DNA from: Actinomycetota bacterium
GTDB lineage: Bacteria > Actinomycetota > CALGFH01 > JBBAAN01
Direction of reading: 5' to 3'
DNA: 64,000 bases
Assembly (NCBI GenBank): GCA_041658225.1
Contig: JBBAAN010000003.1
Span: 18,969 to 82,968 of the forward strand
Position 1 is the stretch's first letter, and the number at the start of each line of letters is the position of its first letter. Positions 10,884 to 56,908 of this stretch are shown here, one piece after another. The notes under the pieces are model-generated. The model was not told the DNA's origin, searched no databases, and was given only the letters and a program-made list of their open reading frames with translations. The position numbers and the translations under genes are program-made.

Positions 10884-13800
10884 TCAGGCGGGCGGAGTGT
10901 TGGCAGGGGGATCCTTTGGATGGATGTTGAGGGCCACCGGACCGTCGATAGCGGCCTGGGACCCGTTGATCACAAGCCGGGCGTAGAGGTCGTACAGGTC
11001 CTTCTCCAATCCCCCGATGGTCAACTGCGCGGTCCATGAGGACCAGTCGCCGCCAGCGCTCGTGTCCACGGCCGCGACCCATGCCCCCTCGGCTGGTAGC
11101 TGACCGGCCGGCACGAGCTGGACCTGGACTTGCGGTCCCGTGGCGACCGTGCGCTTGACCACGATCGACACATGATCCGCGGGGCTCGTCTCGGCGCCGG
11201 CGACCGCGCGTGCGTAGACGGTGTGCCCACCATCGGCGAGGGCCGTCATGTCCAGCGTGGCCCCCCAGACTCCTTCCGCACCCAGGCTGGCGGGCACGGG
11301 TGAGGCGAAGTCGGCATCATCCAGGCTGACCTCCACCCTCTGGTCGCCACCCCCACCGGCGGCAAGAGGCAGGTCCACATAGCTGGCGGGGCTGTCCAAC
11401 TCGGTCCAGGTGAGCGCCTGGCTGTTCTCCACGACGACGGTCAAGCTCACGTCGGCCAGTGACACACCGGCGTATTGATCCCCCACGGGGAAGGAGAAAG
11501 CAAAGGGCGTTGGACCGACCAGGCCGAGAGCGTTGACAACCGCCCCCGCAACGCGCTGGCTTCCTATCACCTGAGGCATGCCGGACTTCATGGTGGTCAG
11601 CTTCACGGTGATCTCGTGCAGCGGCGACGCACCATCGGTGTCCACGTACACGACGCCGCTGACCGGAGTCCCGCCCCCCAGGGTCATCGGGAGCGCGCCG
11701 GGCTCGGCCGGGTACTCGTCGGCGAACTCCACGACCCCCGCGCCAGCAAGGGGCTGGGCCAGGTTGGTGCAGCCATTCCCACCGTCAACGCCGTCTTCAC
11801 GGCTCAGCCGCAGATTGTCGTTAGTTTCGCCGCACCCTTCCCGCCGAAGGAAGAACTTCTGGGGCTGCCCGACGGGTTCTCCGAAGCCGGCGACCCCGGT
11901 CACGGGCAAGGTCGGCGTCACGGACGGGTCGACGATGGTGCCGTCGGCCGGGCTGGCGATCGTGGCGCTGAGATCTCCCCCGCCGCCTCCCCCGCCGCCC
12001 GTCGTCGCGATCGTGAAGAAGCTGGCATGCGGCTCTTCGTAGCCGAAGTACCAGGTGGCCGTTGTATCCAGCGCAAGAGACAGGGTCAGGGTCTCGCCCA
12101 CCGCGACCGGCTGCTCGGTGGTGAATTGGAACGGCAGGGCGGTCGCTCCTTCCTCGGTGAGCAAGATGTCTCCGACTCCGGCGCCAAGGACCATCTCGGA
12201 ACTGCCCTGGCCCACGAGGCGACCGCCGGCCATAAGGGTGGCAGTCATGGTCAGCGGGGCCGGCGCGTCGGTCGCGACGTAGACCACACCGTCCACCTCG
12301 GTTCCCGAGGGAACGGTAACGGCCGAGGGCTGCGTGGAGGAGAACGACTCGACGTCCATGCCCACAAGACCCCCGGCGCCCGCGGCCCCGCACAAGTCGT
12401 CGTCGCCGGTCGAATTGGCCAGGTCCATGAACGGGCCCGGGGTGGCTCCATCGACGCACCCGCCCAGGTGATGCAGCCAGTAGGTCACGCCTGTCCCCTC
12501 GGCCTGCGCCTCGGCCGCTTCCGTCAGGGCGTTGGAGTAGAACGGCCCGAACGTCGCTTCGAGCATTCGGAGTGCGCTCGAGACGGTTCTCACCGCGGAG
12601 GGGCTCACCCCGGCAAGGGGGTTGGCTCCGAGGCTCCCCATGGCGCCCTGCGGCGCGGCGGAGTTCGTGCCCCCGCCGTTCCAGTCGCCCCAAAGGGCGT
12701 CTCTCAACGACTCGTCGGCCGTGAAGAACTGGTCCTCGTTGGGCCGTTCCGGCAGGGAAGCCTGGCCCATCAGAACCTTGAGCGCCCGAGCGCCCGAGTC
12801 GGGCTCGACGATGCCGTATCCCTCCATCAAGTACTGGGCGGGGTTGCTCGGTGTCGTCGTGGGGTAGATGGCGAAGTCACTGTTCGTGTCGTGCTCGGCC
12901 GTCTTGAACACGGCTTCGGTGAGTTCCGCTCGCGTGAGAACCCCGTCGGACAGATAGGGACTCGATGCAACCGGCTTGCCGGTCGCGATGACTCCGTCGG
13001 TCAGGTTCCCAGGTGTGTGATCTCCGGCCAGGCCATCACCGAGCGCCTCGCGAACGGCGCCGAGCACGGTCCCGAACACCCCGGCCGAATACGGCGTGGC
13101 GGCCGACGTTCCACCGAAGTTCTGCGTGCCCGTCTCGCTATCGTATGCGGCGGCGGGTATGAGGCCGCTGCCCCACGAGGTGATGTCCACGGGCTTGCCC
13201 GTACCCACGATCGGCTTCCTCGAGGAGCGCTCCGCGGCCCCAACGCGCACGACCCACTCGGGGCCGAGCTCCTCAGACGCGTATGTCTGCTCGGTCACCA
13301 CAAAAGCGTTCTCGACCCCGTTTCCGGCGGCGTAGAGACCCAACTGCCCGCGTTCGGCCGACGCCTTCGGCTGGGCGGCGTCCCAAAGCAGGCCGAAAGT
13401 GCCCACGTTCCCGATCTTCCCGTAGGAGTTCGACACGATGTCGATCCAGGGCTGACGGTAGGGCCAACCGGCGTCGCCATTGATGTCCTCGTTGAAGACA
13501 AGCAGGCAAGTTGGGCAGAACCCGAACGTGTTGCCGACGGCGACGCTCGTGGCGCCGGTGCCGTGGGAGTTGTCGTCGATTATGGGTCTGGTGTCGGCCA
13601 CGAGCTGCTCGCCGGTATCGCCGTTATCGATGGCGCCGATGATCTTCGTGCCGGGTATCCAGAAGAGCTTGCCCAAGGGGATCTTGTCGTGATTCCAGAG
13701 ACCCGCATCCTCCGCGGGCACGTATCCCTTACCCAGGGTCACGGGAAGAGCCGGGGTGTCGGCCGGGTAGCCGGGGATGTACTCGCTCGGGTGGCGGGTG

Positions 13801-15107
13801 AAGTTCTGAGTCAGTTCCAGAACGCGAGGGTCGGGGTAGGTCGCCGCCGAGTACTCCCGATGGTAGGGGTTGACCCCGGAGTCCGTCACGCCAATGACCA
13901 CCAGGGGCGTGAATCCCGCGGTCGAACCCGGCTCCACCACCCGCACGGCAGTGGTCTCCCTCGCCTCGTAGCCCGCCGCGTCCGTCGCTTTGAAAGTCAC
14001 GAAGTAGCTGCCCACCGGGAAGTGGGTTTCGGCCTGAGTCCCGGGAGTCTCGAAGACCCCATCGGAATCCAGGTCCCACGCTCCGGCAACAGGTGCCGTT
14101 CCACCATTCACGGACGCGGACAAGCGCTGAGCCTGGCCGACCTCGTAGCGGAACGGCCCTTCGGTACTCACAGCGGGAACGGGGTTGGTGGGCTTGCTCT
14201 TGGCGGTGACCGTCAGGTGGTAGGTGTCGCCCGTGCTGAGATACGCCTTGACCACCGCGGCCCAAGCCCCCGAAGCCGGATCCTTGATCGTCATGTGTTC
14301 CGGCATCCGACTCGATGCCCCGTCGGCATCCGCGTCGTGGGCGTCGGAGGGGTCATCCACATACATGTCGAAGTCGTTGACGCCTGCCAGCGGCGACTCA
14401 TCCAGTGTGCCTTGCCCAACACCGGTGTAGGTCCCCCACTCCAGGTTGAGATCGAGCTGGAAGATCTCCTCGGAGACGGCGAATTCGAACCTCCGCGGAG
14501 GCAGGCCATCCGCCTCACCGCCGTTTCCGACCAATTCATCGGGAAGGGCGGCTCCCGTGCTCACCCGCTCATCGAGCAGCAAGAGATCCTGCACTTTGTA
14601 CAGGAACAGCCGGACGGTGTCGGTCGCCACAACTCCCCTGGCGTCGGTGACCGACAACGAAACCGTGAGCGGGCCGGGATTCAGCCCGGAAGTATCCAGG
14701 GTGCTCGTCTGAGAGTCCGGCTGCGCGAAGCGGCTGCTCGAGCCCCCCACCGACCAGGAGAACTCGTAGCCGGCTCGGCCGCCGAAAGCCAGGCCCGACA
14801 CGGTTGCCGTCTTTCCGATCTCCGCGTAGGACGAGTCACCGGCATCCGCGATAAGGGCCGGTGACGCCTGGGCCTGCCCCGACACGACCAGCGTGGCGCC
14901 CCTCACCTTGAGGGGCTTGCCCGACTCCCCCGCGGCAACCGTGTGGCCGTTCACGCCGGTGATCTTGACGGACAGCCCTCCCGCGCCCGCGGGCGCCGCC
15001 AGAAGTAGGACGGCGAGCAACCCGGCAATGCCGAGGCGCATCTGACGTCCAGCCATTCGAAGATGAGTAGATGCGGCCGACACAGCTGTTGAAGTGCTGG
15101 TTTTCAT
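10884..15107 (-). CDS. Large secreted subtilisin-like serine peptidase (S8 family) with extra beta-sandwich domains and a poly-Gly linker
   Basis: Asp/His/Ser motifs GVTDSGVN, DDNSHGTGATSVAVG, GGTSAATPYSAGVFG. The signal peptide MKTSTS...MRLGIAGLLAVLLLAAPAGA is preceded by a GGAAGGA RBS. GGGGGGGG stretch. The 1129-aa plus-strand ORF inside is antisense noise. Confidence 0.85.
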   Translation of the reverse strand: MKTSTSTAVSAASTHLRMAGRQMRLGIAGLLAVLLLAAPAGAGGLSVKITGVNGHTVAAGESGKPLKVRGATLVVSGQAQASPALIADAGDSSYAEIGKTATVSGLAFGGRAGYEFSWSVGGSSSRFAQPDSQTSTLDTSGLNPGPLTVSLSVTDARGVVATDTVRLFLYKVQDLLLLDERVSTGAALPDELVGNGGEADGLPPRRFEFAVSEEIFQLDLNLEWGTYTGVGQGTLDESPLAGVNDFDMYVDDPSDAHDADADGASSRMPEHMTIKDPASGAWAAVVKAYLSTGDTYHLTVTAKSKPTNPVPAVSTEGPFRYEVGQAQRLSASVNGGTAPVAGAWDLDSDGVFETPGTQAETHFPVGSYFVTFKATDAAGYEARETTAVRVVEPGSTAGFTPLVVIGVTDSGVNPYHREYSAATYPDPRVLELTQNFTRHPSEYIPGYPADTPALPVTLGKGYVPAEDAGLWNHDKIPLGKLFWIPGTKIIGAIDNGDTGEQLVADTRPIIDDNSHGTGATSVAVGNTFGFCPTCLLVFNEDINGDAGWPYRQPWIDIVSNSYGKIGNVGTFGLLWDAAQPKASAERGQLGLYAAGNGVENAFVVTEQTYASEELGPEWVVRVGAAERSSRKPIVGTGKPVDITSWGSGLIPAAAYDSETGTQNFGGTSAATPYSAGVFGTVLGAVREALGDGLAGDHTPGNLTDGVIATGKPVASSPYLSDGVLTRAELTEAVFKTAEHDTNSDFAIYPTTTPSNPAQYLMEGYGIVEPDSGARALKVLMGQASLPERPNEDQFFTADESLRDALWGDWNGGGTNSAAPQGAMGSLGANPLAGVSPSAVRTVSSALRMLEATFGPFYSNALTEAAEAQAEGTGVTYWLHHLGGCVDGATPGPFMDLANSTGDDDLCGAAGAGGLVGMDVESFSSTQPSAVTVPSGTEVDGVVYVATDAPAPLTMTATLMAGGRLVGQGSSEMVLGAGVGDILLTEEGATALPFQFTTEQPVAVGETLTLSLALDTTATWYFGYEEPHASFFTIATTGGGGGGGGDLSATIASPADGTIVDPSVTPTLPVTGVAGFGEPVGQPQKFFLRREGCGETNDNLRLSREDGVDGGNGCTNLAQPLAGAGVVEFADEYPAEPGALPMTLGGGTPVSGVVYVDTDGASPLHEITVKLTTMKSGMPQVIGSQRVAGAVVNALGLVGPTPFAFSFPVGDQYAGVSLADVSLTVVVENSQALTWTELDSPASYVDLPLAAGGGGDQRVEVSLDDADFASPVPASLGAEGVWGATLDMTALADGGHTVYARAVAGAETSPADHVSIVVKRTVATGPQVQVQLVPAGQLPAEGAWVAAVDTSAGGDWSSWTAQLTIGGLEKDLYDLYARLVINGSQAAIDGPVALNIHPKDPPANTPPA

Positions 15108-15255
15108 CCCCCGTCCTTCCGTTCGGCGCGACGAGTCCGCCTCGATGAGCGGCATGTACGCGGCTCTGGAATCCCCCCTGACCCGGCCAGACCGGCGTCT
15201 GGCATTCAGGCCAGACGCCAATGGAACTAGATGACAGGGCGCACGTCAAACGCGG

Positions 15256-24954: not shown

Positions 24955-26130
24955 CTACCGGTCGTCGAAGACCATGATCGAGCCCGAATAGCAGGCGACC
25001 CATACCCTGTCGGTCCCCCGGTCGTAGGTGATTCCGATCGGGTGCTCGGCCGTCTCCACCGTCTGGAGAATCTGCAAGTCGGCGGCGCGCAGTTTCGTGA
25101 CGGTCTTGGACTCGTGGTTGACGACATACAGGGACGCCCCGTCGGGGGCGATTGCCATGCTCCGAGGAGCCTGGCCGGTGGTCACCCGCCCCGTGACCCT
25201 CTCTGTCGAAAGGTCGATCTTCACGACCCGCCCGTCGCCGTTCGTCGTCGCGTACAGGTAGCGCCCGTGCGGGTCGAGCACGACGTGGCGCGGGCTGTTG
25301 CCGACGCCGCGGATCCAGCTCACGGTGAAGTCGGCCAGCGAGACCTTGGCGATGTCGTAGGAGCCCATCACAGCGACATAGGCGACGGTCGACCGGGCAT
25401 CAACCGCGATGCCCCGCGGATAGGCCCCCAGCCGAACTCGCCGGATCTCACGCCCGGTGCCGACATCGGCCACGCTCAAGTCATATGAGCACCAGTTACT
25501 CGCCAGCACGTAGCGACCATCAGGTGTGACCGCCACGTACTTGGGCACCGACCCGACGGCAATAACCTGGTCGATCTCCATCGAGGCAAGGGCGATTCGG
25601 TAGAGGTAGCTCGAGTCGAAGCCGTCGGAAGGGAAGCACTTGTCGTCACCCGGATGGTCGAATCCCGGGCCGAACATCGCGTAGTTGGACACGTAGACGG
25701 ATGAGCCATCGGCGCTGAAGGCCGCCTCCACCGGAGCGCCTCGAAACGTGCCCGGGTGCTCCGGATAACCGAAGTCGGATAGCCGAACCGTGTCGGGGAT
25801 GGTGCTCACGAGGTTCCCATCGGCGTCATACACGGTCACCGTGTGCCGGTACATCATGTTCTGGGCGAAGACCAGACCCCGTCCGGAAGCGACCACCGAC
25901 TTGGGAGAGATCGCCCCGCCGATCGTTCGCACCAGGCGCAGACTCCGGTCCGAGGAAAACACGGTCGGTGAGGGTGACGGCGTTGGAGTAGGAGTCGGCC
26001 TCGCGACAGCCATCCTCGCCGGTCGCCGGCGAGGCTCGCGGGCAGTGCCGCCCCCGCGGGGCTCCGCCGCACATCCAACAGCCGCACAGCAGAGGGCGAC
26101 CACGCCGGCCACGGTGCGACCCAGCCTCAT
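24955..26130 (-). CDS. Secreted YVTN-type beta-propeller repeat lipoprotein
   Basis: Signal peptide with lipobox AAVGC; Pro/Thr linker; repeated ...DGRYVLASN... / ...DGASLYVVN... blades. Confidence 0.7.
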   Translation of the reverse strand: MRLGRTVAGVVALCCAAVGCAAEPRGGGTAREPRRRPARMAVARPTPTPTPSPSPTVFSSDRSLRLVRTIGGAISPKSVVASGRGLVFAQNMMYRHTVTVYDADGNLVSTIPDTVRLSDFGYPEHPGTFRGAPVEAAFSADGSSVYVSNYAMFGPGFDHPGDDKCFPSDGFDSSYLYRIALASMEIDQVIAVGSVPKYVAVTPDGRYVLASNWCSYDLSVADVGTGREIRRVRLGAYPRGIAVDARSTVAYVAVMGSYDIAKVSLADFTVSWIRGVGNSPRHVVLDPHGRYLYATTNGDGRVVKIDLSTERVTGRVTTGQAPRSMAIAPDGASLYVVNHESKTVTKLRAADLQILQTVETAEHPIGITYDRGTDRVWVACYSGSIMVFDDR

Positions 26131-45513: not shown

Positions 45514-45937
45514 ACCCGGGGCCCGGGTGACGCTCCGCCGAACTGGTGTTCCGGGTGTTCCGGTGCGAGAGCGCCGAGGTCAACGGCGTGCCAGTCCCGC
45601 AGGCCGAGTGCTACGCCGACAAGTACATTGGCCTGCACGTCACGCCGATCAATGGCGGAAAGAGCCACACCCAGACCGGCAATGAGTCCCGGGCCCACTC
45701 GGCCGCGCCCGGCCGCGGCGTTGAAGGCCGACCGCACCAACCCCGCCGCTCAGAACTTCGACAAGAGGGTGAAGGGGCGAGCAGCCGCGACCCGAGCGCA
45801 AGAACTCGGCGATCCGCCCGTTGTACACGGAAAGGTGGTTGCGGGATCCGGGATCCGACGACCAGCGAGAGCCAGGAAGAAGACGGTAAAATGAATGCCA
45901 TCTTCCAGCCAGTTCCTCTTCACGAAAGGAAGACCAG

Positions 45938-46808
45938 CGTGCTCCATTCTCCGGGTATGAGACTCGTGCGCGGCATCACGGCCGTGGTGACCCTCCTCCT
46001 GGTACCGCTGCTTGTCATGACGACCTCTCCGGCCGCGGTTGCGGACCCTGCCTGGGCTCCGGCGGGGGCGGCCACCATCCATCCGGGCGTCCAGACGTTC
46101 AGCCTGCCGCCCGGCGGGAACCAGTGCACGGCCAACTTTATCTTCGCCGACGGCACCGAGGTCTATATCGGTCAAGCCGCTCACTGCTCGGGTACGGGCG
46201 GCAACACGGCCACCGACGGCTGCACCTCGCCGTCCCTGCCGCTCGGCAGCCAGGTGAAGGTCGAGGGTGCGTCCCGGCCGGGCGTGATGGTCTACAACTC
46301 CTGGCTCACCATGCAGGCGCTCAACGAAACGGACTCCGACACTTGCAGGTTCAACGATCTTGCCCTGGTCCGGGTCGATCCCGCCGACGTGGCCCGAGTG
46401 AATCCCTCGATCCCGTTCTGGGGCGGGCCCATGGGGCTGAACTCCGCCGGGACCACGCTCGGCCAGTTCGTCTACAGCTACGGCAACTCCGAGCTGAGGC
46501 TGGGAATCAGCCAGCTCAGCCCTAAGAAGGGAATCAGCCTCGGCGACGCCGGATCCGGATGGAGCCATAACGTCTCGACTGTGACGCCGGGAGTTCCGGG
46601 CGACTCGGGCAGCTGCTTCCTCGACACCGCCGGCAACGCCCTCGGCGTCGTGAGCACGCTCAACGTCGGCCTTCCCGGAGGGGTCTTCAACGGAATCGGC
46701 GACCTGTCCAGGGAGCTCGCCTACATGCACGCCCACACGTCGCTAACCGGCGTGCACCTCGTGCTGGGGGACGTGCCGTTCAACGGCAACCGACTGCCCG
46801 TCGGGTAG
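45938..46808 (+). CDS. Secreted trypsin/chymotrypsin-like serine protease (S1 family)
   Basis: GTG start preceded by an AAAGGAAG RBS; signal peptide MRLVRGITAVVTLLLVPLLVMTTSPAAVA; catalytic GVPGDSGSCFLD; AAHC histidine region. Confidence 0.8.
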
Positions 46809-46947: not shown

Positions 46948-48324
46948 CTATTCTGACCAGCCGGCGCGGCGGGAGACTACGGCAATGAGCCACACGCTGG
47001 CCAGGATCAGGATGGGGTCAACAGCCCCAACCCGGAATCGCACGTAGGGCAGGTGAGCAGCCAACACCACAAGAGGAACGACCGCCGCCGCGAACAGGAA
47101 CTTGCCGCACCGCCTGCCGCGCAAGGCAAGACCGCCGAGCCCACACAGACCCAGCACGACCAACGGGCCCGAAGTGAACCAGAGGACGGTCTTGCTCACG
47201 CCCGGGGTCAACTCCTCCCGGCTCACGCGACTTGGAGCGGGAGAGAGAATGGCAACGGTCTTGAGTACTGCCCGGCGCAGGAATCGTCCCGGAGCCGCTC
47301 GCACGTCCTTCACCATCAGCGACCGAAACCACTCGTCGCGCGCGGCTTCCGGCGCGGAGGCGAAATCGAACCCCTCGGAGGCGGCCCTGGCCTCGATACC
47401 CGGGAAGAACCGCCCATAGGTCGCGTACGTCTCGCTCCCCGGATAGAGGGGGTCGCTGTCGCTGTACACGTGCTTCAGATCCTTCGCGTCGGGCCGGTTC
47501 GCCGCCCATAGGGTGAACCCCTCGCTCGAAGTGACCGGCACGAAGCCCCCCAGCGCATGCGCGTTGCGCAGGGTCCAGGGCGCAAGCACGAGGAACGCCG
47601 CGAGAACCACGCTCCCGGCGATGACCAAGCGACGACCCAGCGGGCGTGCAAGGGCAATGACAACAACGCCCACCACGAAGGCGGCGAGCGCCGCCGGGCG
47701 GGCGAGAATGGCCAGGCCCCAGGCCGCTCCGCACAGCAACCCGGCCGACCACCTGGGGCGGTCCAGCGCAACAAGAGTCGCCCAAACACCGAGGACAAGG
47801 AGGGGGATCGCCAAGTTCTCTGAGAGTGCCTGGCTCGAGAAGTGCACAAAGGGCGGGTAGAGCGCCCCTGCCCACGCCGCCCCCAGCGCGGTCCAGATCG
47901 GTATCCGGAGCCGGCGGGCGGCGCCGAAGAAGAGCAGCGGCAGGGCGCCGCCGAGGAGCGCCTGGACCCCCTGGACACCCCGAATCCCGAGTCCCAGCTC
48001 TCGCAGCCCGGCCAGTAGCAAGACGTAGCCCGGTGGTCGCCAGGCCGTTGGTGTTCCCAGGTAGCTGAAGCCTCGACCGTGAGCGAGGTTGGTGGCGATC
48101 GCCCAGAAGCTGGTCTCATCGTCGGTGAGCCTTGGCCCGATCCCCCAGAAGGCGTAGGCAAGCCGCGCAGCGACGGCCGCGACCACCGCCCCGGCCAGGA
48201 CCACCCGCCAGCTTCTTTCAGTCGAATCGACCAGACGTTTAACGGATGTCCCCAGTCTCCCTGGGTGAGCGCGCCGACCGCCCTGGTCGTGCTCGCCGCG
48301 GCCAAGACCCCAAGCCGGCCTCAA
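46948..48324 (-). CDS. PMT_2/GT39-like (ArnT/protein-O-mannosyltransferase-type, GT-C) polytopic membrane glycosyltransferase
   Basis: About 12 TM helices; periplasmic loop-1 DE-type motif LTDDETSFW. Confidence 0.7.
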   Translation of the reverse strand: MRPAWGLGRGEHDQGGRRAHPGRLGTSVKRLVDSTERSWRVVLAGAVVAAVAARLAYAFWGIGPRLTDDETSFWAIATNLAHGRGFSYLGTPTAWRPPGYVLLLAGLRELGLGIRGVQGVQALLGGALPLLFFGAARRLRIPIWTALGAAWAGALYPPFVHFSSQALSENLAIPLLVLGVWATLVALDRPRWSAGLLCGAAWGLAILARPAALAAFVVGVVVIALARPLGRRLVIAGSVVLAAFLVLAPWTLRNAHALGGFVPVTSSEGFTLWAANRPDAKDLKHVYSDSDPLYPGSETYATYGRFFPGIEARAASEGFDFASAPEAARDEWFRSLMVKDVRAAPGRFLRRAVLKTVAILSPAPSRVSREELTPGVSKTVLWFTSGPLVVLGLCGLGGLALRGRRCGKFLFAAAVVPLVVLAAHLPYVRFRVGAVDPILILASVWLIAVVSRRAGWSE

Positions 48325-48376: not shown

Positions 48377-51343
48377 TCACCGGACGGCCCGTTCCCAGCA
48401 ACTAACTAGCTCCCCAGTGCACGCCGCGAGGGAGAAGCGCTCCTCGACACGGCGGCGCGCCGCGGCTCCCATGCGGTCCAGCCTCTCCTCGACCGTAACA
48501 GCCACCTCTTCAAGCGCGCACGAGAGCGCGGCCGCGTCGGCGGGCGGAACCAGCCAGCCGGTTTGCTCGTCCACCATCTCGGGAATCCCCACCTCCGCTG
48601 TCGCCACCACCGGCAGCCCCATGGCCATGGCTTCTTTCACGACCACCGGCTGGGAGTCTCGGTTGCCATCGGACGCCACCACGCACGGAAGACAAAAGAC
48701 AGAAGCTCCCTCCAGCGCCGCCCGAACCGCCGAAGGCGGCACGGACCCCTCAAGATAGACCGCCTGGCGCAGACCCAATTCCTCGATGAGCCGCTCCAGG
48801 GCCCCCCTTTCGGAGCCCTCACCGAGTATCCGGCACCGGAAGGATACGCCTCTGTCGCGCAGAAGCGCACACGCCCTGATGAGGTAATCGAAGCCCTTCT
48901 TCTCGACGAGCCGCCCCACCGCGACGATCGTGAAAGGATCTCGCCGGTAGGGTTGCATGCGGTAGAAGCGATCGACGTCCACGCCGCACGGGACTACCTC
49001 GATGTGGCCCAGCCCGGGCCAAGTAGTCTCGATGAACCGTCGGTTGTATTCGCAGACGGTCAGAGTCACGTCGGCCGCGCCGAGCTTTCGCTCCATGTCG
49101 AACGGACGCACGAACAGGTCGTAGGCGTGACCCGTGAAGGAGAAGCGTGACCCGAGCGCCGCCGCCGTGAGCATCGCGGTCGAGGCCGACACCAGCGCGA
49201 AGTGGGCGTGGATCCTCTCGGGCCGATCGGGGCCAAGCTCATCCAACAACAGGATGCTCTTTGTGAGGGCACGCATCTGTTGCCGGGAAGGGCGGCGCAG
49301 CGCGAGGGCGACGACGCGCGCCAGACGAGCGGGATGGCGAAAGGCGAGGCGCAGACTGGCCCCAAGGAACCGAACCGGGTGGTGAACGACCGAGACAAGG
49401 CACTGAAACGGAAGATCTGAAGCGTCCGTGTCCAAGTCCTGGTGCGCTCGGATGGCGAAGATGCGAGCAACCACGCCCAGCTTGCGAAGCTGGCGAAGCT
49501 CGCTCTGGATGAACGTCTCCGAACGCTCGGGGAAGCGTTCCAGTACGTACACGACTCCGCCGGCCGCACGGGAGGACGCTCCTTCGCTTGCGCCTACCGG
49601 GACATCGTCAGGGGAATTCTCCCCGCGGTGCAGAGAACCTGGGTCTGCATCCACCATGGGCTCGTCGTCGTCGGGCAAACCCAGCACCCCGTCCGGGGGA
49701 TCCTCCCGGCGCTCCAACAAACCCAGGTCTGCATCCACCATGGGCTCGCCGCCGTCGGGCAAACCCAGCACCCCGTCCGGGAAACGCCCGGCGCGGACAG
49801 GGAAACCCCCGGCGCGGACAGGGAAACCCGAAGCCCCGTCCCGTAGGTCGGGAGCTCCATCAGGCAAGCCCACCCGGGGAGGCTGCCGCGCGGCGGATGC
49901 CACAAGCTCCTTGACAAGCCAGCGCAGCAGTTCGCGATCCACTATCAGAAACATCAGGGCCGACAGCGCCACGAAGAGGACGACGACCCCCGCAAACCAA
50001 ACCACAGTCGTCGGTGGCCCAGTTGCCCAGCGAAGACCCAGGGCCAACAGCGCCGCGGTTCCCGACGCCAGGAACTCCCGCCGAGCATTCAAGAAGAGGT
50101 TGAGGCCGGGAAACAGCCTGCGCATCATCGCCTGGCGAGCGAACACCGCTATTGGGCCCATGGTTGCGATAGCCCAAGCCGCTCCCTTCAGGCCGCCAAG
50201 CACTACGACCGGAAGCAGGATGAGAAAGACCCAGGCAGTACCTATGGCGCTGATGACCAAAGTGGGCCGCGTCTCGGCGCGGGCCCTGAAGAACACGTCC
50301 CACGAATAGCCGACGCTCCCGACCGCGACCGCAAACCCCTGCGCGACAAAGAGCGCAACAGCGGGCTCCCACTTCGACCCGAGTATGAAGCGCACCAAGT
50401 CCGGAGCGAAGATCGCGAGTCCGAAACCTATCGGCCCGGCCCACATCACCGTGATGCGGTTGGTGACGGTGAACGCTCGCCGCTGGCCTTCGAGGTCCTC
50501 CGGCGCCCGGCACAAAGCCGGGAAGATCGTCTGTCCGATCAGCGAGTCCAGACGGAAGGCGCGCTGGGCCAGGGCCTGGGAAAGGGCGAAGTACCCCAGT
50601 GCGGAGATCCCCATGACCGCGGAGATCACGGCGGTTCCGCCCCACGCCGTCGCGATCCCCAGGACGCCCGCGATCCAAAGCGGCCAGCCGTAACGAATGA
50701 AACGCTGGGTGATGGCGCGGTTGAGCCGGATTCGCGGCCGAAGGGGAGCAGCCCAGGCGATGACTCCCCCGGAAGCCACGAGAGCGGCAACCGCACCCGC
50801 GATGGGGCTCCACACACCGGCCCCGGCAAGAGCCAGCGTCACCGTGACCGTGAAGTTAACCGCGGGCCCGATCGACGTGATGATGTTGCGGCGCCTGTAC
50901 TCCAGCTCCCTGAGATACAGCGCGCTCGGCAAGTTCAGGAACGCAGTCGTGTAGATCGTGAGGCCGAGTACGCAAATCATGGGCACGAGAGCCGGGCGAT
51001 GATAGAGGAAGGCAACCAAGGGGGAGAGTCCGGCTATCAGAAGGAAGACCGCCGTGGAGAAGAGCATCTCGAGCGTGAAGGCAACCGAATAGGCCAGCGG
51101 CAGATCGATTTCCCGCTCCTGAACAAGCTTCTCGTGGCTTCCGAACTCCCTGAGAGACTGACCGGCACCCACGGCAACGAACGCCAGTGTCAGCAGGCCC
51201 ATGCGCCCGGGACCCAACAACCGCGACACCAGAAGGGTCTGGACGAGCACCAACGCCTGAAGGGCAAAGTCGAACCCGAGATTGACGATGAGGCCGCGCC
51301 CCGCGGCTCTACGCATGTCGCCAAGCTTCACAGCGGCGCTCAC
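48377..51343 (-). CDS. Fusion protein: N-terminal Wzx/PST-family polysaccharide flippase (about 480 aa, about 12 TM), repeat-containing linker, C-terminal GT4 (group 1) glycosyltransferase
   Basis: A single uninterrupted 988-aa ORF. The C-terminal region carries GT4 hallmarks (...EGSVPPSAV...PVVATAEVGIPEMV...). The linker contains DNA tandem repeats. Confidence 0.7.
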   Translation of the reverse strand: MSAAVKLGDMRRAAGRGLIVNLGFDFALQALVLVQTLLVSRLLGPGRMGLLTLAFVAVGAGQSLREFGSHEKLVQEREIDLPLAYSVAFTLEMLFSTAVFLLIAGLSPLVAFLYHRPALVPMICVLGLTIYTTAFLNLPSALYLRELEYRRRNIITSIGPAVNFTVTVTLALAGAGVWSPIAGAVAALVASGGVIAWAAPLRPRIRLNRAITQRFIRYGWPLWIAGVLGIATAWGGTAVISAVMGISALGYFALSQALAQRAFRLDSLIGQTIFPALCRAPEDLEGQRRAFTVTNRITVMWAGPIGFGLAIFAPDLVRFILGSKWEPAVALFVAQGFAVAVGSVGYSWDVFFRARAETRPTLVISAIGTAWVFLILLPVVVLGGLKGAAWAIATMGPIAVFARQAMMRRLFPGLNLFLNARREFLASGTAALLALGLRWATGPPTTVVWFAGVVVLFVALSALMFLIVDRELLRWLVKELVASAARQPPRVGLPDGAPDLRDGASGFPVRAGGFPVRAGRFPDGVLGLPDGGEPMVDADLGLLERREDPPDGVLGLPDDDEPMVDADPGSLHRGENSPDDVPVGASEGASSRAAGGVVYVLERFPERSETFIQSELRQLRKLGVVARIFAIRAHQDLDTDASDLPFQCLVSVVHHPVRFLGASLRLAFRHPARLARVVALALRRPSRQQMRALTKSILLLDELGPDRPERIHAHFALVSASTAMLTAAALGSRFSFTGHAYDLFVRPFDMERKLGAADVTLTVCEYNRRFIETTWPGLGHIEVVPCGVDVDRFYRMQPYRRDPFTIVAVGRLVEKKGFDYLIRACALLRDRGVSFRCRILGEGSERGALERLIEELGLRQAVYLEGSVPPSAVRAALEGASVFCLPCVVASDGNRDSQPVVVKEAMAMGLPVVATAEVGIPEMVDEQTGWLVPPADAAALSCALEEVAVTVEERLDRMGAAARRRVEERFSLAACTGELVSCWERAVR
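49642..49822. repeat. Tandem repeats inside the flippase-GT4 linker: about 1.7 copies of an 84-bp unit (49642-49781) followed by about 2.5 copies of a 21-bp unit (aaacgcccggcgcggacaggg)
   Basis: Seen in the sequence; they encode the repeated PDGVLGLPDxxEPMVDADxG and FPVRAG peptides. Confidence 0.65.
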
Positions 51344-52296
51344 AGCAACAATGTCCGGTTGCGAATACTGGCCGCAACAAAAACGCCGACCTCGAACGCC
51401 TCGACCAGAGCTTCCTGCAGGAACCGAAGGAGCAGCCTCGGGACCGAGTCACCCCTGGCACGCTTCAAGATCAGATAGCCCAGGAAGGCGCCCGCTGCGA
51501 CCAGAGGGGCCAGCCAGTATCGCAGCAGCCCCGCCGCGACCAAGAGCGCCAGGAGACCAAGCAACCGAGCGTGCGAGGGCCGGAAGAAGTAGCGGTGGTA
51601 CACCAGTGCCCGGCTCCCCGGATGATGGCGCACCACCCGTACGACCTGTCCCCACCGGCGCCGATCCCTCAGGTACGCCCAGTACGAGGATTCCGAGACC
51701 GCGTGGTAGACAAGCGCCTCCGGCTCGTAGCAACTCCTGTAGCCGGCCTCCAAGGTCCGAAGAGCCAGTTCGGTGTCCTCCCCCGCCGCGTACGCGAACT
51801 CCGTGCGAAACCCCCCCACCCGCTCCAACGCCTCTCGCCGGTAGGCGATGTTGCACGTCCGATACAGCCCATCTTCGCGTTCGACCCGCAGCGTGCGCGA
51901 CCACGGCCCCAAGCGGTTGATCTGGTCGAGGCGAGGAAGGGTACGCCCCTGCACGATGTCCGCCCGGCCCTGTTCTATAGGAGACGCTATCGCCTCGAGC
52001 CAGCCCGGGGCCGGCAGACAATCGTCGTCGGTGAAGGCAACCACCGGCGCCCGCGCCGCTTCCCACCCGACCTGACGCGCGTACGCCGGGCCCCGCCGGG
52101 ATACCCGAATGGTCCGCACACCTCGATCCCGCAGCAGTTCAGGAGTCCCGTCCGGCGACTCATCGTCCACGACGATGAGCTCGAAGTCACGCCGCGTCTG
52201 GGACTCCAGCCCGTCCAGCATATCCGCCAGGAGGCCAACCCGGCCGCACGTGGCCACAACGACGCTGACGGCCGGGTCAGTTGGCGAGGTCTGCAT
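51340..52296 (-). CDS. GT2 glycosyltransferase
   Basis: VSVVVATCGRVGLL...ELIVVDDESPDGT...AFTDDDCLPAPGWL. Confidence 0.85.
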   Translation of the reverse strand: MQTSPTDPAVSVVVATCGRVGLLADMLDGLESQTRRDFELIVVDDESPDGTPELLRDRGVRTIRVSRRGPAYARQVGWEAARAPVVAFTDDDCLPAPGWLEAIASPIEQGRADIVQGRTLPRLDQINRLGPWSRTLRVEREDGLYRTCNIAYRREALERVGGFRTEFAYAAGEDTELALRTLEAGYRSCYEPEALVYHAVSESSYWAYLRDRRRWGQVVRVVRHHPGSRALVYHRYFFRPSHARLLGLLALLVAAGLLRYWLAPLVAAGAFLGYLILKRARGDSVPRLLLRFLQEALVEAFEVGVFVAASIRNRTLLL

Positions 52297-53383
52297 AAGT
52301 GGCCTCCAGGTCGGGGCCCACGCGCGACCAATCCCAACACCCCGCCGCAGCCCGGCAGCGGACGGCGGTCTCCGGGTCCTCCGCCATCTCGATCACCTCG
52401 ACCAACTTCCGGGCCAGCGCCTCGCCGTCATCGGGAGGAAAGAGGCGGCCGATGGAAGGATCGTCGATGACCTCAGGGATGGCCCCATGGTCCGCTCCCA
52501 CCACCGGAGTGCCGGCAGCCAGAGACTCGACCATCACCAACCCAAAGGCCTCATCGACTGATGGGAGCACGCTCACGTGCGCGGTGCGGTACAGCTCCGC
52601 AAGTGACCGCGCATCGAGTCCGGTCCGCACTTCGGCTCGGGCGCGGCTGGGGGCGTCAAGGCAATCGAGCATGCGCTCCGCCTCCTCGGCTCGAGGCGCG
52701 GCCAGCGCGAGGCGCGCGTTCGGGACCTCACGCAGCAGCAAGGGGAAGGCCCGCACCAGCACCTCCACGCGCTTGCGGGGATCCTCGGGTGCGGCGGCGC
52801 ACAGCACGAGCGGTTCCCCCGTTCTCGGCTTCGGGCCCTGGTAGAGTTCCGTGCGCACACCGGGAGGGACGACCTGGGACGCGACCCCGAACTCCTCCTT
52901 CAGGGCGCGGGCGGCGAAGCGGCTCAACGAGTGGATGCGCGCGGCGCCCGCCACACCGATCCGGAAAGCGGCCCAGTGAAGTGGACGGCCGGTGAACCTG
53001 GCACGCCTCGGGGCCCCCGGCACCCACATGACGTATGGGACCCGCCTCCCCAGCGTTCCGAGGCGCGCGGCAAACGCGTCCGCGTGGCCGTGGCACTGGA
53101 TCACGTCCGTGTCGAAGTCCCTCACGCCCCGGGCAATACAGGGCACGGTCCGCAGGAGCTCATCGACCCGGAGGGGTCCCCACCCGAAAGGCTTGCCCGG
53201 CAGGCGATAGCGAATGGTGACGCCCGGGACCGCAGCCTCGTCGCGGGCGGAGTCCGGAGCGGTGGTCGCGATCGTGACGACATGGCCCCGCCCCGCCAGC
53301 CACTCGGCCAGCTCGTGCAGGTACCTCTCCGCCCCACGCCATACGTACGGATGCGCATAGGGACTCGTAAGTCCGATCTTCAC
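52277..53383 (-). CDS. GT4 (group 1) glycosyltransferase
   Basis: C-terminal ...VLPSVDEAFGLVMVESLAAGTPVVGADHGAIPEVI... Confidence 0.85.
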   Translation of the reverse strand: MKIGLTSPYAHPYVWRGAERYLHELAEWLAGRGHVVTIATTAPDSARDEAAVPGVTIRYRLPGKPFGWGPLRVDELLRTVPCIARGVRDFDTDVIQCHGHADAFAARLGTLGRRVPYVMWVPGAPRRARFTGRPLHWAAFRIGVAGAARIHSLSRFAARALKEEFGVASQVVPPGVRTELYQGPKPRTGEPLVLCAAAPEDPRKRVEVLVRAFPLLLREVPNARLALAAPRAEEAERMLDCLDAPSRARAEVRTGLDARSLAELYRTAHVSVLPSVDEAFGLVMVESLAAGTPVVGADHGAIPEVIDDPSIGRLFPPDDGEALARKLVEVIEMAEDPETAVRCRAAAGCWDWSRVGPDLEATYADLAN

Positions 53384-53390
53384 GGCGACA

Positions 53391-54101
53391 TCATCGTTGG
53401 CGGACGACCTGGGCGGGGATGCCCGCTACGACGGACCCGGCGGGCACATCGTCCTTGACCACCGCATGAGCGGCGACCACGGCCTCATCCCCAATCGTGA
53501 CCCCCATGAGGACCGACGCTTTGGCGCAGACCCACACGTTTCGCCCGATGCGTATTGGGGCGGTCTGGACATTGTGATGGATGGGGCTGTGGGCCGCGTC
53601 GTGGAAATGCCGGGAGTCAACGATCGTCACGAACTCGGTGAGAAACGAGTGGCGGCCGAGCACAATGCGCTCCGCGCAATGGACGACGTTGTAGTAGCCG
53701 ATGACGTTCTCGCCCTCGAGCTCCAACTCGCCGGAGACCTTGAGAACGCTGCCGCGCCGGATGCTCGCGCCGGGTCCGAGCAGCAGCGTTCCTCCTCGCA
53801 TGAGTATGCGGACTCCGTCTTCGATCCGGCACCCGGGACCCGCAACGATGCGGTTTCTCGAACGGGATTCGACCAGGATCCGGACATCTCGCCCAAGCAC
53901 GAGGTCCGGCGCGGCCGAGAACTCGACCTTTGCGCCCTTCGCCGCCGCCTGTAGACGCAACCCGGCAACCAGGAGCCATCGGCGAAAGGACCTTCCCAGC
54001 CGCAGCAACGAACGCATGGCTGCCAGCCTGTTCATCCCGCCGGCTTGTCCGTCACCGGCCAGGCGGTCGCGGTCCGAAAGCAACGAACGCATAGTCATCA
54101 A
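53391..54101 (-). CDS. Hexapeptide-repeat (left-handed beta-helix) acetyltransferase, sugar O-acetyltransferase-like
   Basis: Repeating [LIV]GxxxxI hexads ...IGRNVWVCAKASVLMGVTIGDEAVVAAHAVV... Confidence 0.8.
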   Translation of the reverse strand: MMTMRSLLSDRDRLAGDGQAGGMNRLAAMRSLLRLGRSFRRWLLVAGLRLQAAAKGAKVEFSAAPDLVLGRDVRILVESRSRNRIVAGPGCRIEDGVRILMRGGTLLLGPGASIRRGSVLKVSGELELEGENVIGYYNVVHCAERIVLGRHSFLTEFVTIVDSRHFHDAAHSPIHHNVQTAPIRIGRNVWVCAKASVLMGVTIGDEAVVAAHAVVKDDVPAGSVVAGIPAQVVRQR

Positions 54102-55293
54102 CCTCGTGACCCGGTACGAGATGAAACCCGATCCCCGATCTGAGCTCGCTTTGCCTTCCCGGTGCTCTCAATCAACGTGGACAACTCCTCAGCCCTGCGC
54201 GTCCACGACTCGGACCGGACCCGCTCCACCCGCTCGAGCCGCACGGCAGGATCCTCGATGAGCCGACCACGTTCGCCCCAGATGCGATCCACCAGGCGAG
54301 CAAACTCCGCCGGACCGTTTGCCGTCATGACGTGGGGGGCCAGCTCCCGCGCGGCCGGAATATCAACCGATACGACCGGCAGGCCCGCGGCCATGTACTC
54401 CAGCAGTTTCAGTGGGCGCGACGGTTCGACGATGCCGCTGCGAAGATACGGAACCACCGCAATGTCAAAGCCCGCAAGCCACGAAGGCACCTGTTCGTAG
54501 GGCACCTCGTCCTCGAAGACGCACCCGGCGCGGCTGAGCCTACACATGTCGCGCCAGGGCAACCGGCGAGGCCCCAGGATTGTCACCGAGCCCCGGCCGG
54601 CCGCCATCGCGCAGACGGCATCCACGTCGAAGCGGCGTTCGGCCTTGCCGACGAATCCAATTCGAGGACGTGCCCGATGCTCCATTGCCGGAGCGGGCGT
54701 CACCTTGCCACGGGCAACCGGCTCGAAGATCCCCACGTCCACCCCGTGGGCAACATGGTGTGCCTCCACGCCGTAGCCACGAAGCCTCTCGGCAATCTCG
54801 GGCGTGCAGCCCACGGCGAAATCGGCCGACCGGAGGATCTTCCGCAGGAACGTCTCGTACTCAGGACGAAACCACGGGTAGTCCCAGAGCGAATCCGTCA
54901 GGTGAAGGAAGTGCACCGACGGATCGATACGAGGAGCCACGAGCGGGGAGTAGTAGACGGGGCAGGTGTTCCACAACACGGGCCGCTTCCATCCCAGTTG
55001 CCTGACGGCACACTCGACCGATTCCGCGTACGAACGCTGGTTCCACCAAGTGGTCAGGTGAAACCTCAAGGAGCCGGCGAAGGGTAGGTGCGGTGGCGGC
55101 TCCAAGCGCAGGATTCCGCCCCCCTCGTCGTGGAGACGCTCGCCCGGCGTGCCGGCCTGCCAGAGGTGTCGTGGAGGGTCCACGAAGAGGACTTCGTTCG
55201 TGCCGGCGAGGATGCGGGCAAGGTGATACCGACTGGTTCGCAGGAAGTCCCAGCGCAGCCAGGAGAGGCACACGATCTGCCGGCCCTCTATCA
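54098..55293 (-). CDS. GT4-type glycosyltransferase (TuaH-like)
   Basis: Probable start MIEGRQIVCLSW at 55293; C-terminal ...KLLEYMAAGLPVVSVDIPAARELA... Confidence 0.7.
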
Positions 55294-55313
55294 TGAGGCG
55301 ACTCCCGCGAGAC

Positions 55314-56679
55314 TCATGGCGGATCGCCGGCACAACAGCCGGACTGAGGGCCCGATCCCACGGACGCGACCGCACCCTCCGCCGGTCCGCCTTCCGCAGG
55401 GGCACGCCGGCACTCACGCAGAGCGATGGTGAAGTACCACCACCACGCGATGGCTCCCATCCACATCGTAAGCGCCACGCCCCACGCCGCACCCCGCGCA
55501 CCACCCGTCACGGCTCCGCTGATGCCGCCGACAGCCATCAAGGAGGCAGTGATGAGTCGGGCCTTCAGGCTTTGCCTCGCGGCGGCAAGGGCACGCAACC
55601 CGAACAGGGCCCCCGCCACAGCGCTTGACGCCACCAGGGCCACACCCATGGGAAGGACTACGGCTCTGGCCGTCACCCATGACTCCCCGAGAGCGAGCCT
55701 TCCGATTCGGTCGGGCAGCAGCAGCACTACGCTCGTCCACATCACGACACCGGCAGCGAGTGTCACGGACAGCAGGACCGTCACGGGCCTCAGCCTGGAG
55801 GGGTGGGCTCGGAAAAGCCCTACCGCCTCTGGAATCGCAGCCAGGGCCACTCCCACGAAGAGCACGTTGAGCGGTCCCATCAAGAGCCCGGCTCCCTTAT
55901 AGGCGCCCGCCGCCGAGAGCCCAGCCGCCGCCGCGACCCCGTAGAGGACGAACTCCAAGGCGAAGTTCATTGCCAGGAACTCCCCCAGATAACGAGGGGC
56001 AAGGTCTCGATGAGCGCTCAGCCATCGACCGGCCAGACACGGTCTCGGAATCGTGCCCGCCTGGAGGGCGCCGAGCGCGGCGGCCACAGCGGCGGACCCG
56101 GCCCACGCGAACACGAACCACGACACGGACGCCGCGCGCACCCGCGGGAGCAGCAACAGCGGAGCCAGCATCATCGCCCCTCGCGAGAGGTCGTTGAGGA
56201 ACGCCAGGTGCCCTTTGCGAATGGAGAAGAACGCGTCCCGCCACAGGTCCTGCAGTAGCAGGGCCGGCAGTAGAAGCCCCAGGGGCAAGAGCGCCTGGCG
56301 GAGCGGGCCGTGCATCGCCCACGCGGCCACCAGCACCCCCAGGCCCAGGATCGACCCGACCACCACGCTCGTGCCCGAGGCGGCACGCGCGGCGGCGCGC
56401 CAGGACTCCATGTCCGACCCGCTGTGTCGCACCAAGAGCGGTTCCGCCGCCAGCGCTCGCGAGGAGCCGAGAGCGAGAGTGCACCCGGAGAACGCCAGGC
56501 TGAAGGCGCCAAATTGCGACGGGGACAGTGTGCGAGCCACGAGGACGGCAAGCGCAAAGCTGGTGAGGCTGGAAAGCGACTGGTCGGCGAGTCCCCAACC
56601 GAAGCGTCCCGCGGTGGCCCACCCCCGCTCCGCGGACGGCCGCTCCGCCTGGCTTTCCGCCGCGGAGGGCACGCGCATC
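55314..56679 (-). CDS. Polysaccharide biosynthesis protein / oligosaccharide flippase (Wzx, PST family), 12-14 TM
   Basis: Continuous hydrophobic helices; probable start MRVPSAAE at 56679. Confidence 0.7.
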
Positions 56680-56908
56680 CGCAAACGACCCGGTCGTTCA
56701 GTGACTACGCTCAACGCCGTTCTCCCTTTGCGGCTGTTCATATGTTCAACGGAGCCGGTGCCGATTCCTCCCGGCTCGGCACTGATCTCAAGTCCCCCGC
56801 CGGGCAAGACTCGCCGTCTCGCGGCAGGAGACCCTGCCACCGGGCGAGCAAGCAGGTAGAGACCGGCGGACCCATTCCTCCCTCACCGCGCCTCACCGCG
56901 CCACCATG

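Follow-up and report, generated by a model that had tools for sequence, protein, structure and literature searches.

Is the oligosaccharide flippase of a polysaccharide locus in an uncultured Actinomycetota bacterium really joined to a glycosyltransferase (GT) in one polypeptide and, if so, how did the two come together and what does the joining mean? The locus lies in a 64,000-nucleotide stretch of contig JBBAAN010000003.1 (assembly GCA_041658225.1; the whole stretch is called the window below), with a G+C content of 66.8%. An earlier note on this DNA had proposed that a single open reading frame (ORF) fuses a Wzx flippase to a family 4 glycosyltransferase (GT4) through a tandem-repeat linker, and this was borne out by the ORF itself, by Pfam and NCBIfam matches and by the repeats. 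We regard it as very probable that the protein is a real, lineage-specific flippase-GT4 fusion in a polysaccharide (Wzx-type) operon, descended from a propeller-bearing ancestor and carrying a flexible tether. The fusion is rare and made of known parts, and it is known from two closely related populations.

One reading frame encodes a flippase, a linker and a glycosyltransferase

The whole fusion ORF occupies 48377-51343 on the minus strand (coordinates including the stop codon) and encodes 988 amino acids (aa) in three parts, all on that strand. A MOP/PST (Wzx-type) flippase domain (aa 1-485, 49889-51343), delimited by Pfam, AlphaFold and homologues, is followed by an interdomain linker (aa 486-596, 49556-49888), recognised by low predicted local distance difference test (pLDDT) scores and by its ratio of nonsynonymous to synonymous substitution (dN/dS), and by a complete WcaL/AmsK/EpsE-like GT4 domain of the GT-B fold (aa 597-988, 48380-49555), delimited by Pfam, NCBIfam, Foldseek and the junction alignment. 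In the ORF frame the G+C content at third codon positions (GC3) was 0.62-0.93 and exceeded that at second positions (GC2) in nearly every 40-codon segment, the linker included; the single marginal exception was aa 481-520 at the linker (GC3 0.68, GC2 0.70). The reading frame is unbroken across flippase, linker and GT4. Inside the ORF we found no promoter-like site, and terminator-like sites were not in excess.

The ORF begins with a GTG that shares bases with the stop codon of the GT2 gene upstream (GTGA). An ATG at M10 (51314-51316) is an alternative start, and the NCBI record MFA5785647.1 (protein P0306, 979 aa) begins there, nine residues downstream of the start of the longest ORF. The record is named 'oligosaccharide flippase family protein' and does not mention the GT4 half, so that the public annotation overlooks the glycosyltransferase. 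A further GTG codon at 49550-49552 (V598), preceded at short spacing by GGCGGAG, is a candidate internal start for the GT domain.

The N-terminal half matched Polysacc_synt_3 (PF13440; aa 39-329, 168.8 bits, E=2e-49, cut-off 23) and Polysacc_synt (PF01943; aa 16-279, 57.7 bits, cut-off 28.2) in Pfam, and a full-length MOP flippase model of NCBIfam spanned aa 30-482. Its score against the WzxC equivalog model (NCBIfam NF007773 / PRK10459) was 100.7 bits, below the cut-off of 273. On these matches the half is assigned to the MOP superfamily as a PST/Wzx-type flippase. AlphaFold2, given 70 aligned rows of flippase and GT homologues, returned a model with a mean pLDDT of 85.9 in which both domains were mostly above 90. 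The model has 14 transmembrane (TM) helices and a cytoplasmic amphipathic helix (aa 470-485), and Arg/Lys-rich loops, read from the sequence, alternate sides throughout from the basic N terminus onward, a pattern that indicates an N-in, C-in protein. For WzxE, cytoplasmic N and C termini have been shown experimentally and structurally (PMC11706664). With this topology of a 14-TM flippase both termini, and hence the linker and the GT4 domain, are predicted to be cytoplasmic, as the earlier note had supposed for the GT; this is the placement that a nucleotide-sugar-dependent GT-B enzyme requires.

The flippase shares 49-59% identity with the flippases of its relatives (see below) and is encoded among four GT genes and one acyltransferase gene, a context from which its substrate is predicted to be a polyprenyl-diphosphate-linked oligosaccharide. 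No other protein of the window has a MOP domain or a WcaL-like GT that can be recognised. A 508-aa ORF at 55314-56840 on the minus strand, with at least six hydrophobic segments and the N-terminal motif LADQSLSSLTSFALAVLVARTLSPSQFG, has no Pfam or NCBIfam match; it overlaps the 5' end of the ORF at 54098-55504 by 190 nt. An hhalign comparison gave it a weak PST-like match over the TM9-12 region (probability 28%, E=6e-4), and it could be a very divergent PST-like membrane protein serving as a second transporter or as the polymerase of the cluster.

The C-terminal half drew Pfam GT matches across aa 669-964 (Glycos_transf_1, PF00534, 102.1 bits; Glyco_trans_1_4, PF13692, 107.6 bits; Glyco_transf_4, PF13439, 32.8 bits), and an EpsE/WcaL-like GT4 model of NCBIfam covered aa 599-974. 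Foldseek aligned the modelled domain with the solved GT4 enzymes PimB', MshA, BshA and BA1558 at TM-scores of 0.75-0.83 (PimB' 3oka 0.79, BshA 0.81, 2jjm 0.83). The predicted structure thus places the domain in CAZy family GT4, of the retaining GT-B type with two Rossmann folds. An E/D-x7-E motif is present as D896-x7-E904 inside DGNRDSQPVVVKEAMA, a segment kept in the family consensus, and these residues are probably involved in catalysis; the family's conserved DGxRDSxPVVxKEAMA segment is retained. The domain is 52-61% identical to stand-alone GT4 proteins of ~400 aa. Its scores against the WcaL (TIGR04005; 145.4 bits, cut-off 537.6) and EpsE (NF041876; 161.9 bits, cut-off 400) equivalog models were below threshold, and the WcaL/AmsK-like label derives solely from the naming of homologues at JGI. 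In the representative library, WcaL-like GT4 domains often occur in tandem, two to four per protein (P0024, P0026, P0027, P0041, P0045 and others, 1100-1450 aa).

The fusion recurs in a second assembly and in a second population

The identical 988-aa protein is encoded on a 106,382-bp Logan/ENA contig and on a 96,722-bp JGI/NCBI contig, which are different assemblies. A separate population is represented by a 3,037-bp contig (L001, JGI sample 3300038466), whose protein P0002 is 94% identical to that of the window, with a DNA identity of 92-95%; synteny between the two reaches into the PMT_2-like gene downstream of the fusion. L001 has the same in-frame flippase-linker-GT4 junction, minus exactly 7 aa and 28 aa: it carries one 21-bp unit and one 84-bp unit, one fewer of each than the window. 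Since the fusion is present with single-copy repeats in L001, the repeats did not create it, and the suggestion of a 'repeat-mediated fusion artefact' in the earlier note fails on this point as well as on the agreement of independent assemblies.

Comparison of the window and L001 alleles by the Nei-Gojobori method, at a dS of about 0.10-0.14, gave dN/dS values of 0.215 for the flippase, 0.202 for the GT4 domain and 0.713 for the linker. Both enzymatic halves have been under purifying selection since the fusion, and the linker evolves nearly neutrally. The L001 contig starts with a perfect 60-bp palindrome at 1-60 (CTATCAGCAGGAAGACCGCCGTCGAGA / TCTCGACGGCGGTCTTCCTGCTGATAG), most likely a contig-end assembly artefact, which truncates the flippase at residue 93.

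The fusion is rare among known proteins

A HMMER pass over 1.84 billion representative proteins produced 189,512 matches, and among the best 150, which were inspected, a flippase joined to a GT4 domain of this kind was found only in the window protein's own cluster; fusions too divergent to enter those best 150 would escape detection. That flippase-GT fusions are rare, as the earlier note had stated, therefore holds for these best matches. Multi-stretch matches of 800-1450 aa were considered as further flippase fusions and rejected, being proteins in which two to four GT domains stand in tandem. None of the best 120 homologues of the GT had a flippase domain, and nearly all were stand-alone proteins of ~400 aa. 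A search of the GTDB species genomes found no fusion and no close relative, only matches to the GT domain at 30-43% identity, mostly from Proteobacteria and Acidobacteria. A metagenome scan found no further fusion alleles and yielded two loci (L038 and L040) with separate genes. A literature search, incomplete in coverage and thus weak as a negative, returned no description of a Wzx-GT fusion.

Other joins involving MOP flippases do occur. The 842-aa protein P0094 of the representative library joins a GT2 domain at its N terminus (aa 4-247) to a Polysacc_synt_3 flippase (aa 356-822). The former is 26% identical to the window GT2 and the latter 31% identical to the window flippase, and P0094 is an independent GT2-flippase fusion. 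P0018 (914 aa) is a MOP flippase with a C-terminal ATP-grasp-type domain. From these two proteins it follows that MOP flippases occasionally carry an added soluble cytoplasmic domain at one end or the other.

The fusion descends from a flippase with a C-terminal propeller

The closest homologues of the flippase, at 42-59% identity, come from Microthrixaceae/Actinomycetota metagenome-assembled genomes and from metagenomes. In word-index searches, all homologues of at least 42% identity were proteins of ~800 aa with a propeller, save for the 368-aa fragment P0025, and those at 38% identity or less were stand-alone flippases of ~500 aa; an exhaustive search added two propeller-less flippases of ~500 aa (P0020 and P0022). 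The propeller is a C-terminal beta-propeller domain of ~330 aa, resembling Vgb lyase, NHL and SGL domains, which occupies the place of the GT in at least 17 clusters. In P0003 it scored 48.7 bits against a Pfam cut-off of 50. Propeller-bearing flippases are encoded at L070 6001-8436, L071 6001-8436, L073 6001-8436, L075 3501-5921, L076 3501-5909, L077 2337-4673 and L038 2-1972. In these relatives the propeller directly follows TM14 with no extra TM helix, and so is presumably cytoplasmic. We know of no description of this flippase-propeller architecture. In the window fusion no propeller was found after TM14: Pfam gave no match, and a propeller hidden Markov model (HMM) scored -4.9 bits or less in all three frames.

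The earlier note had called for a comparison of orthologous clusters, and separate flippase and GT4 genes were found in L070, L073/74, L038 and L077. In L070 (P0003 and P0168) and L073/74 (L073: P0004 and P0023) the operon runs in the order hexapeptide acyltransferase, GT4, GT2, flippase-propeller and a separate GT4 of ~400 aa; in L038 and L077 (P0009) the flippase-propeller and GT4 pair was confirmed, though not the wider order. The start of the GT4 gene overlaps the stop of the flippase gene as GTGA or ATGA in L070, L073/74 and L038, and the two gene calls overlap by 49 bp in L077. Operon proteins of these relatives are 54-59% identical to those of the window, gene by gene. The window GT domain starts at the equivalent of residue 3 of a stand-alone GT (GG-VVYVLERFPERSETF in the window, MN-VVYVVERFPERSETF in L038). 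L071/72, L075 and L076 have no downstream GT4, which makes the flippase-GT4 gene pair a usual feature of the window's sub-clade but not a universal one.

In a neighbour-joining tree of flippase domains, 85 of 100 bootstraps nested the window protein within the clade of propeller-bearing flippases. Given this nested position and the synteny, the parsimonious history is that the propeller and the stop/start junction were lost, which would have joined two already co-translated neighbouring genes. The loss probably took the form of a deletion whose exact breakpoints are not recoverable. Relocation of the propeller within the window was considered and rejected, as the only propeller-like ORF (24955-26130) lacks specific similarity. 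On a 174-kb metagenome contig (L040 7995-10654) a homologous GT4 gene (408 aa) precedes a MOP flippase gene (478 aa) with a 4-bp overlap, which is the same gene pair in reversed order and unfused.

The linker is disordered and carries in-frame tandem repeats

The linker measures ~108-111 aa, longer than the ~90 aa given in the earlier note. It is rich in Pro, Asp and Gly and predicted to be disordered, with pLDDT below 50 over aa 487-594; Pfam gave no match in aa 486-596. Both repeat periods reported earlier were recovered with Tandem Repeats Finder (TRF), at slightly different copy numbers: an 84-bp period at 49642-49795 (1.9 copies instead of ~1.7; score 243) and a 21-bp period at 49779-49829 (2.4 copies instead of ~2.5; score 95). 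TRF combined with in-frame reading on the minus strand resolves the first into two 84-bp (28-codon) units at 49616-49783, FPDGVLGLPDGGEPMVDADLGLLERRED / PPDGVLGLPDDDEPMVDADPGSLHRGEN, and the start of a third (SPDD), and the second into two 21-bp (7-codon) units at 49790-49831, SGFPVRA / GGFPVRA; each pair is followed by a partial further copy. The copies of a 56-bp core of the 84-bp unit are 96% identical (E = 3e-22). A dispersed or mobile repeat was rejected because the 84-bp unit is confined to the linker and occurs nowhere else in the window.

Since 84 and 21 are both divisible by three, slippage cannot shift the frame: a change in copy number alters only the length of the tether, as seen in L001, and cannot break or restore the fusion, the other consequence foreseen in the earlier note. 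The origin of the linker is traceable in part. Its first ~20 residues align with the segment that follows TM14 in ancestral-type proteins, and the rest does not significantly resemble the ancestral propeller in any of the frames. The idea that the linker is left over from a propeller blade, hinted at by a MAFFT alignment and by weak correct-frame tblastn matches, was considered and rejected: the propeller HMM scored -4.9 bits on the linker, below many shuffles, with the other two frames no better, and in a Smith-Waterman permutation test the window linker had p values of ~0.06 (mean) and 0.36 (maximum), and the single-copy P0002 linker one of 0.7. An (L/F)PDG motif recurs along the linker, which suggests growth by repeated local duplication.

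Alternative explanations and functional meaning

It is scarcely credible that errors of sequencing or assembly in the repeat region have merged two genes into an apparent single ORF. Short-read assemblies do tend to err in tandem repeats, and the DNA is metagenomic, but two assemblers yield the same 988-aa product, a divergent population shows the same junction with single-copy repeats, there is no in-frame stop, the GC3 signal runs continuously over the linker, and a repeat miscount cannot remove a stop/start overlap together with an entire propeller. Hardly better is the chance that the repeats act as a contingency (phase-variation) switch for the fusion or its GT. The copy number of both repeats does differ between the two known alleles, yet units that are multiples of three change only the tether length, both alleles are in frame, and we saw no homopolymer or short-unit tract and no frame-shifting or promoter-altering unit of the kind that marks a phase-variable locus. 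A decaying gene, in which propeller loss inactivated the flippase or fusion inactivated the GT to leave a young pseudogene, is improbable, if somewhat less so. It would explain why a domain kept in nearly all close relatives is absent, and the weakly PST-like ORF nearby could replace the flippase; against it, dN/dS has stayed at ~0.2 in both halves over the divergence of the two alleles, both domains are modelled at high confidence with the DGxRDSxPVVxKEAMA segment intact, and the window offers no other recognisable MOP domain or WcaL-like GT.

A much more substantial possibility, falling only a little short of an even chance, is that the fusion is real but neutral: a by-product of the propeller deletion, tolerated as the joined ends are cytoplasmic, with the two modules working independently and the GT perhaps also made from the GTG at V598. 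The linker is long, disordered and nearly unconstrained, the fusion is limited to two populations that are close relatives, an overlapping stop and start had already linked the expression of the ancestral genes, and the unrelated P0094 shows that such joins arise sporadically. Purifying selection on both halves and a frame kept through two separate changes in repeat number speak against neutrality, but to a limited extent, as they show maintenance of the ORF and not selection on the tether.

Several of these points also weigh against our preferred reading of a lineage-specific fusion with a flexible tether. The full-length product is known from sequence alone and from just the two related populations, and the event could be recent and neutral; the GGCGGAG-preceded GTG could allow separate translation of the GT. 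Most of the linker has no traceable origin, and 108 disordered residues constrain geometry little. The fused flippase may not be the sole transporter of the cluster, given the ORF at 55314-56840, and the GT lies below the WcaL and EpsE equivalog cut-offs.

In functional terms, the GT4 domain would be kept on the cytoplasmic side of the membrane, next to the entrance of the flippase, in a fixed ratio of 1:1. Its undecaprenyl-diphosphate-linked oligosaccharide product would then be made where it is flipped, which would favour immediate flipping and limit dead-end intermediates. Build-up of such intermediates, as when a flippase is lost while GTs remain active, sequesters undecaprenyl phosphate and is harmful (PMC11706664, PMC12826051). 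It is plausible that sugar transfer and flipping are functionally coupled; the evidence here does not discriminate between such coupling and a neutral join. WcaL acts at the end of colanic-acid repeat-unit assembly (PMC12826051), and because the fused GT misses the WcaL and EpsE cut-offs, the idea that it adds the last sugar is an analogy with WcaL only. A bolder proposal, which we think unlikely, is that flippases of this clade recruit the downstream GT4 non-covalently through the cytoplasmic propeller and that, once the propeller was lost, a covalent tether replaced this contact, so that the late GT and the flippase would form a physical complex. On this view the fusion would serve as a natural 'Rosetta stone', pointing to direct hand-over of the finished lipid-linked unit to its transporter.

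Whether Wzx flippases form physical complexes with the GTs that finish their substrates is still debated, and there is little direct evidence, both partners being difficult to work with. A selectively maintained fusion would be a testable hint of coupling and a ready-made construct for biochemistry and cryo-electron microscopy; a merely neutral one would be a minor evolutionary curiosity. The locus also illustrates cleanly how two operon genes become a single protein, first through loss of a domain and read-through and then as in-frame tandem duplications lengthen a disordered tether.

Comparison with known systems

One comparison is with the ancestral-type operons (L070, L073, L038 and L077), in which flippase and GT4 genes are adjacent and translationally coupled, at 49-59% identity to the window gene by gene. 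There the flippase carries the propeller and the GT4 is separate, whereas the window protein lacks the propeller and has the GT4 attached by the repeat-bearing linker. In E. coli (wzxC/wcaL) and Erwinia (amsL/amsK) a MOP flippase and a WcaL/AmsK-type GT4 are likewise encoded near each other in one polysaccharide cluster, but as separate polypeptides, in contrast to the single polypeptide of this actinobacterium. With scores below the WzxC, WcaL and EpsE cut-offs, the window domains are family relatives of the colanic-acid proteins and not orthologues.

Among multidomain flippases, MviN (MurJ) of Mycobacterium tuberculosis is an actinobacterial 14-TM MOP protein with an extra C-terminal cytoplasmic domain; the appended domain is a pseudokinase and not a glycosyltransferase, beyond it come one more TM helix and an extracellular domain, and the substrate is lipid II. 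P0094 resembles the window protein in combining a GT and Polysacc_synt_3 in one chain, but its GT belongs to family 2 and is N-terminal. Synthase systems such as BcsA and hyaluronan synthase unite glycosyl transfer and translocation in one protein; these are processive GT2 enzymes with their own channel and without a flipped lipid-linked repeat unit, whereas the window protein tethers a GT4 of non-processive type to a MOP transporter. The closest published logic, a product-making enzyme joined to a membrane domain proposed to translocate the product, is that of MprF/PplT, where a lipid-modifying enzyme is fused to a flippase, GT-B fusions in Actinobacteria included (bioRxiv 10.1101/2022.03.11.483950). 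The PplT fold is unrelated to MOP, however, and the substrates are phospholipids and glycolipids rather than polyprenyl-diphosphate oligosaccharides.

Genes around the fusion

The upstream genes of the operon together span 51340-54101 on the minus strand and are syntenic with those of the relatives, in the same order and at 54-59% identity. They encode a hexapeptide acyltransferase (53391-54101), a GT4 separate from the fused one (52277-53383) and, directly upstream of the fusion, a GT2 (51340-52296). Downstream of the fusion on the same strand lies a gene for a PMT_2-like (GT-C type) membrane protein with several TM segments (46948-48324). Just downstream of the glycan cluster, a plus-strand ORF of 420 aa (45546-46808) has a GDSGS serine-protease-like motif and a sub-threshold match to Trypsin_2 (19.2 bits, cut-off 27.6). 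Elsewhere in the window a very long minus-strand ORF at 10884-15221 encodes 1445 aa.

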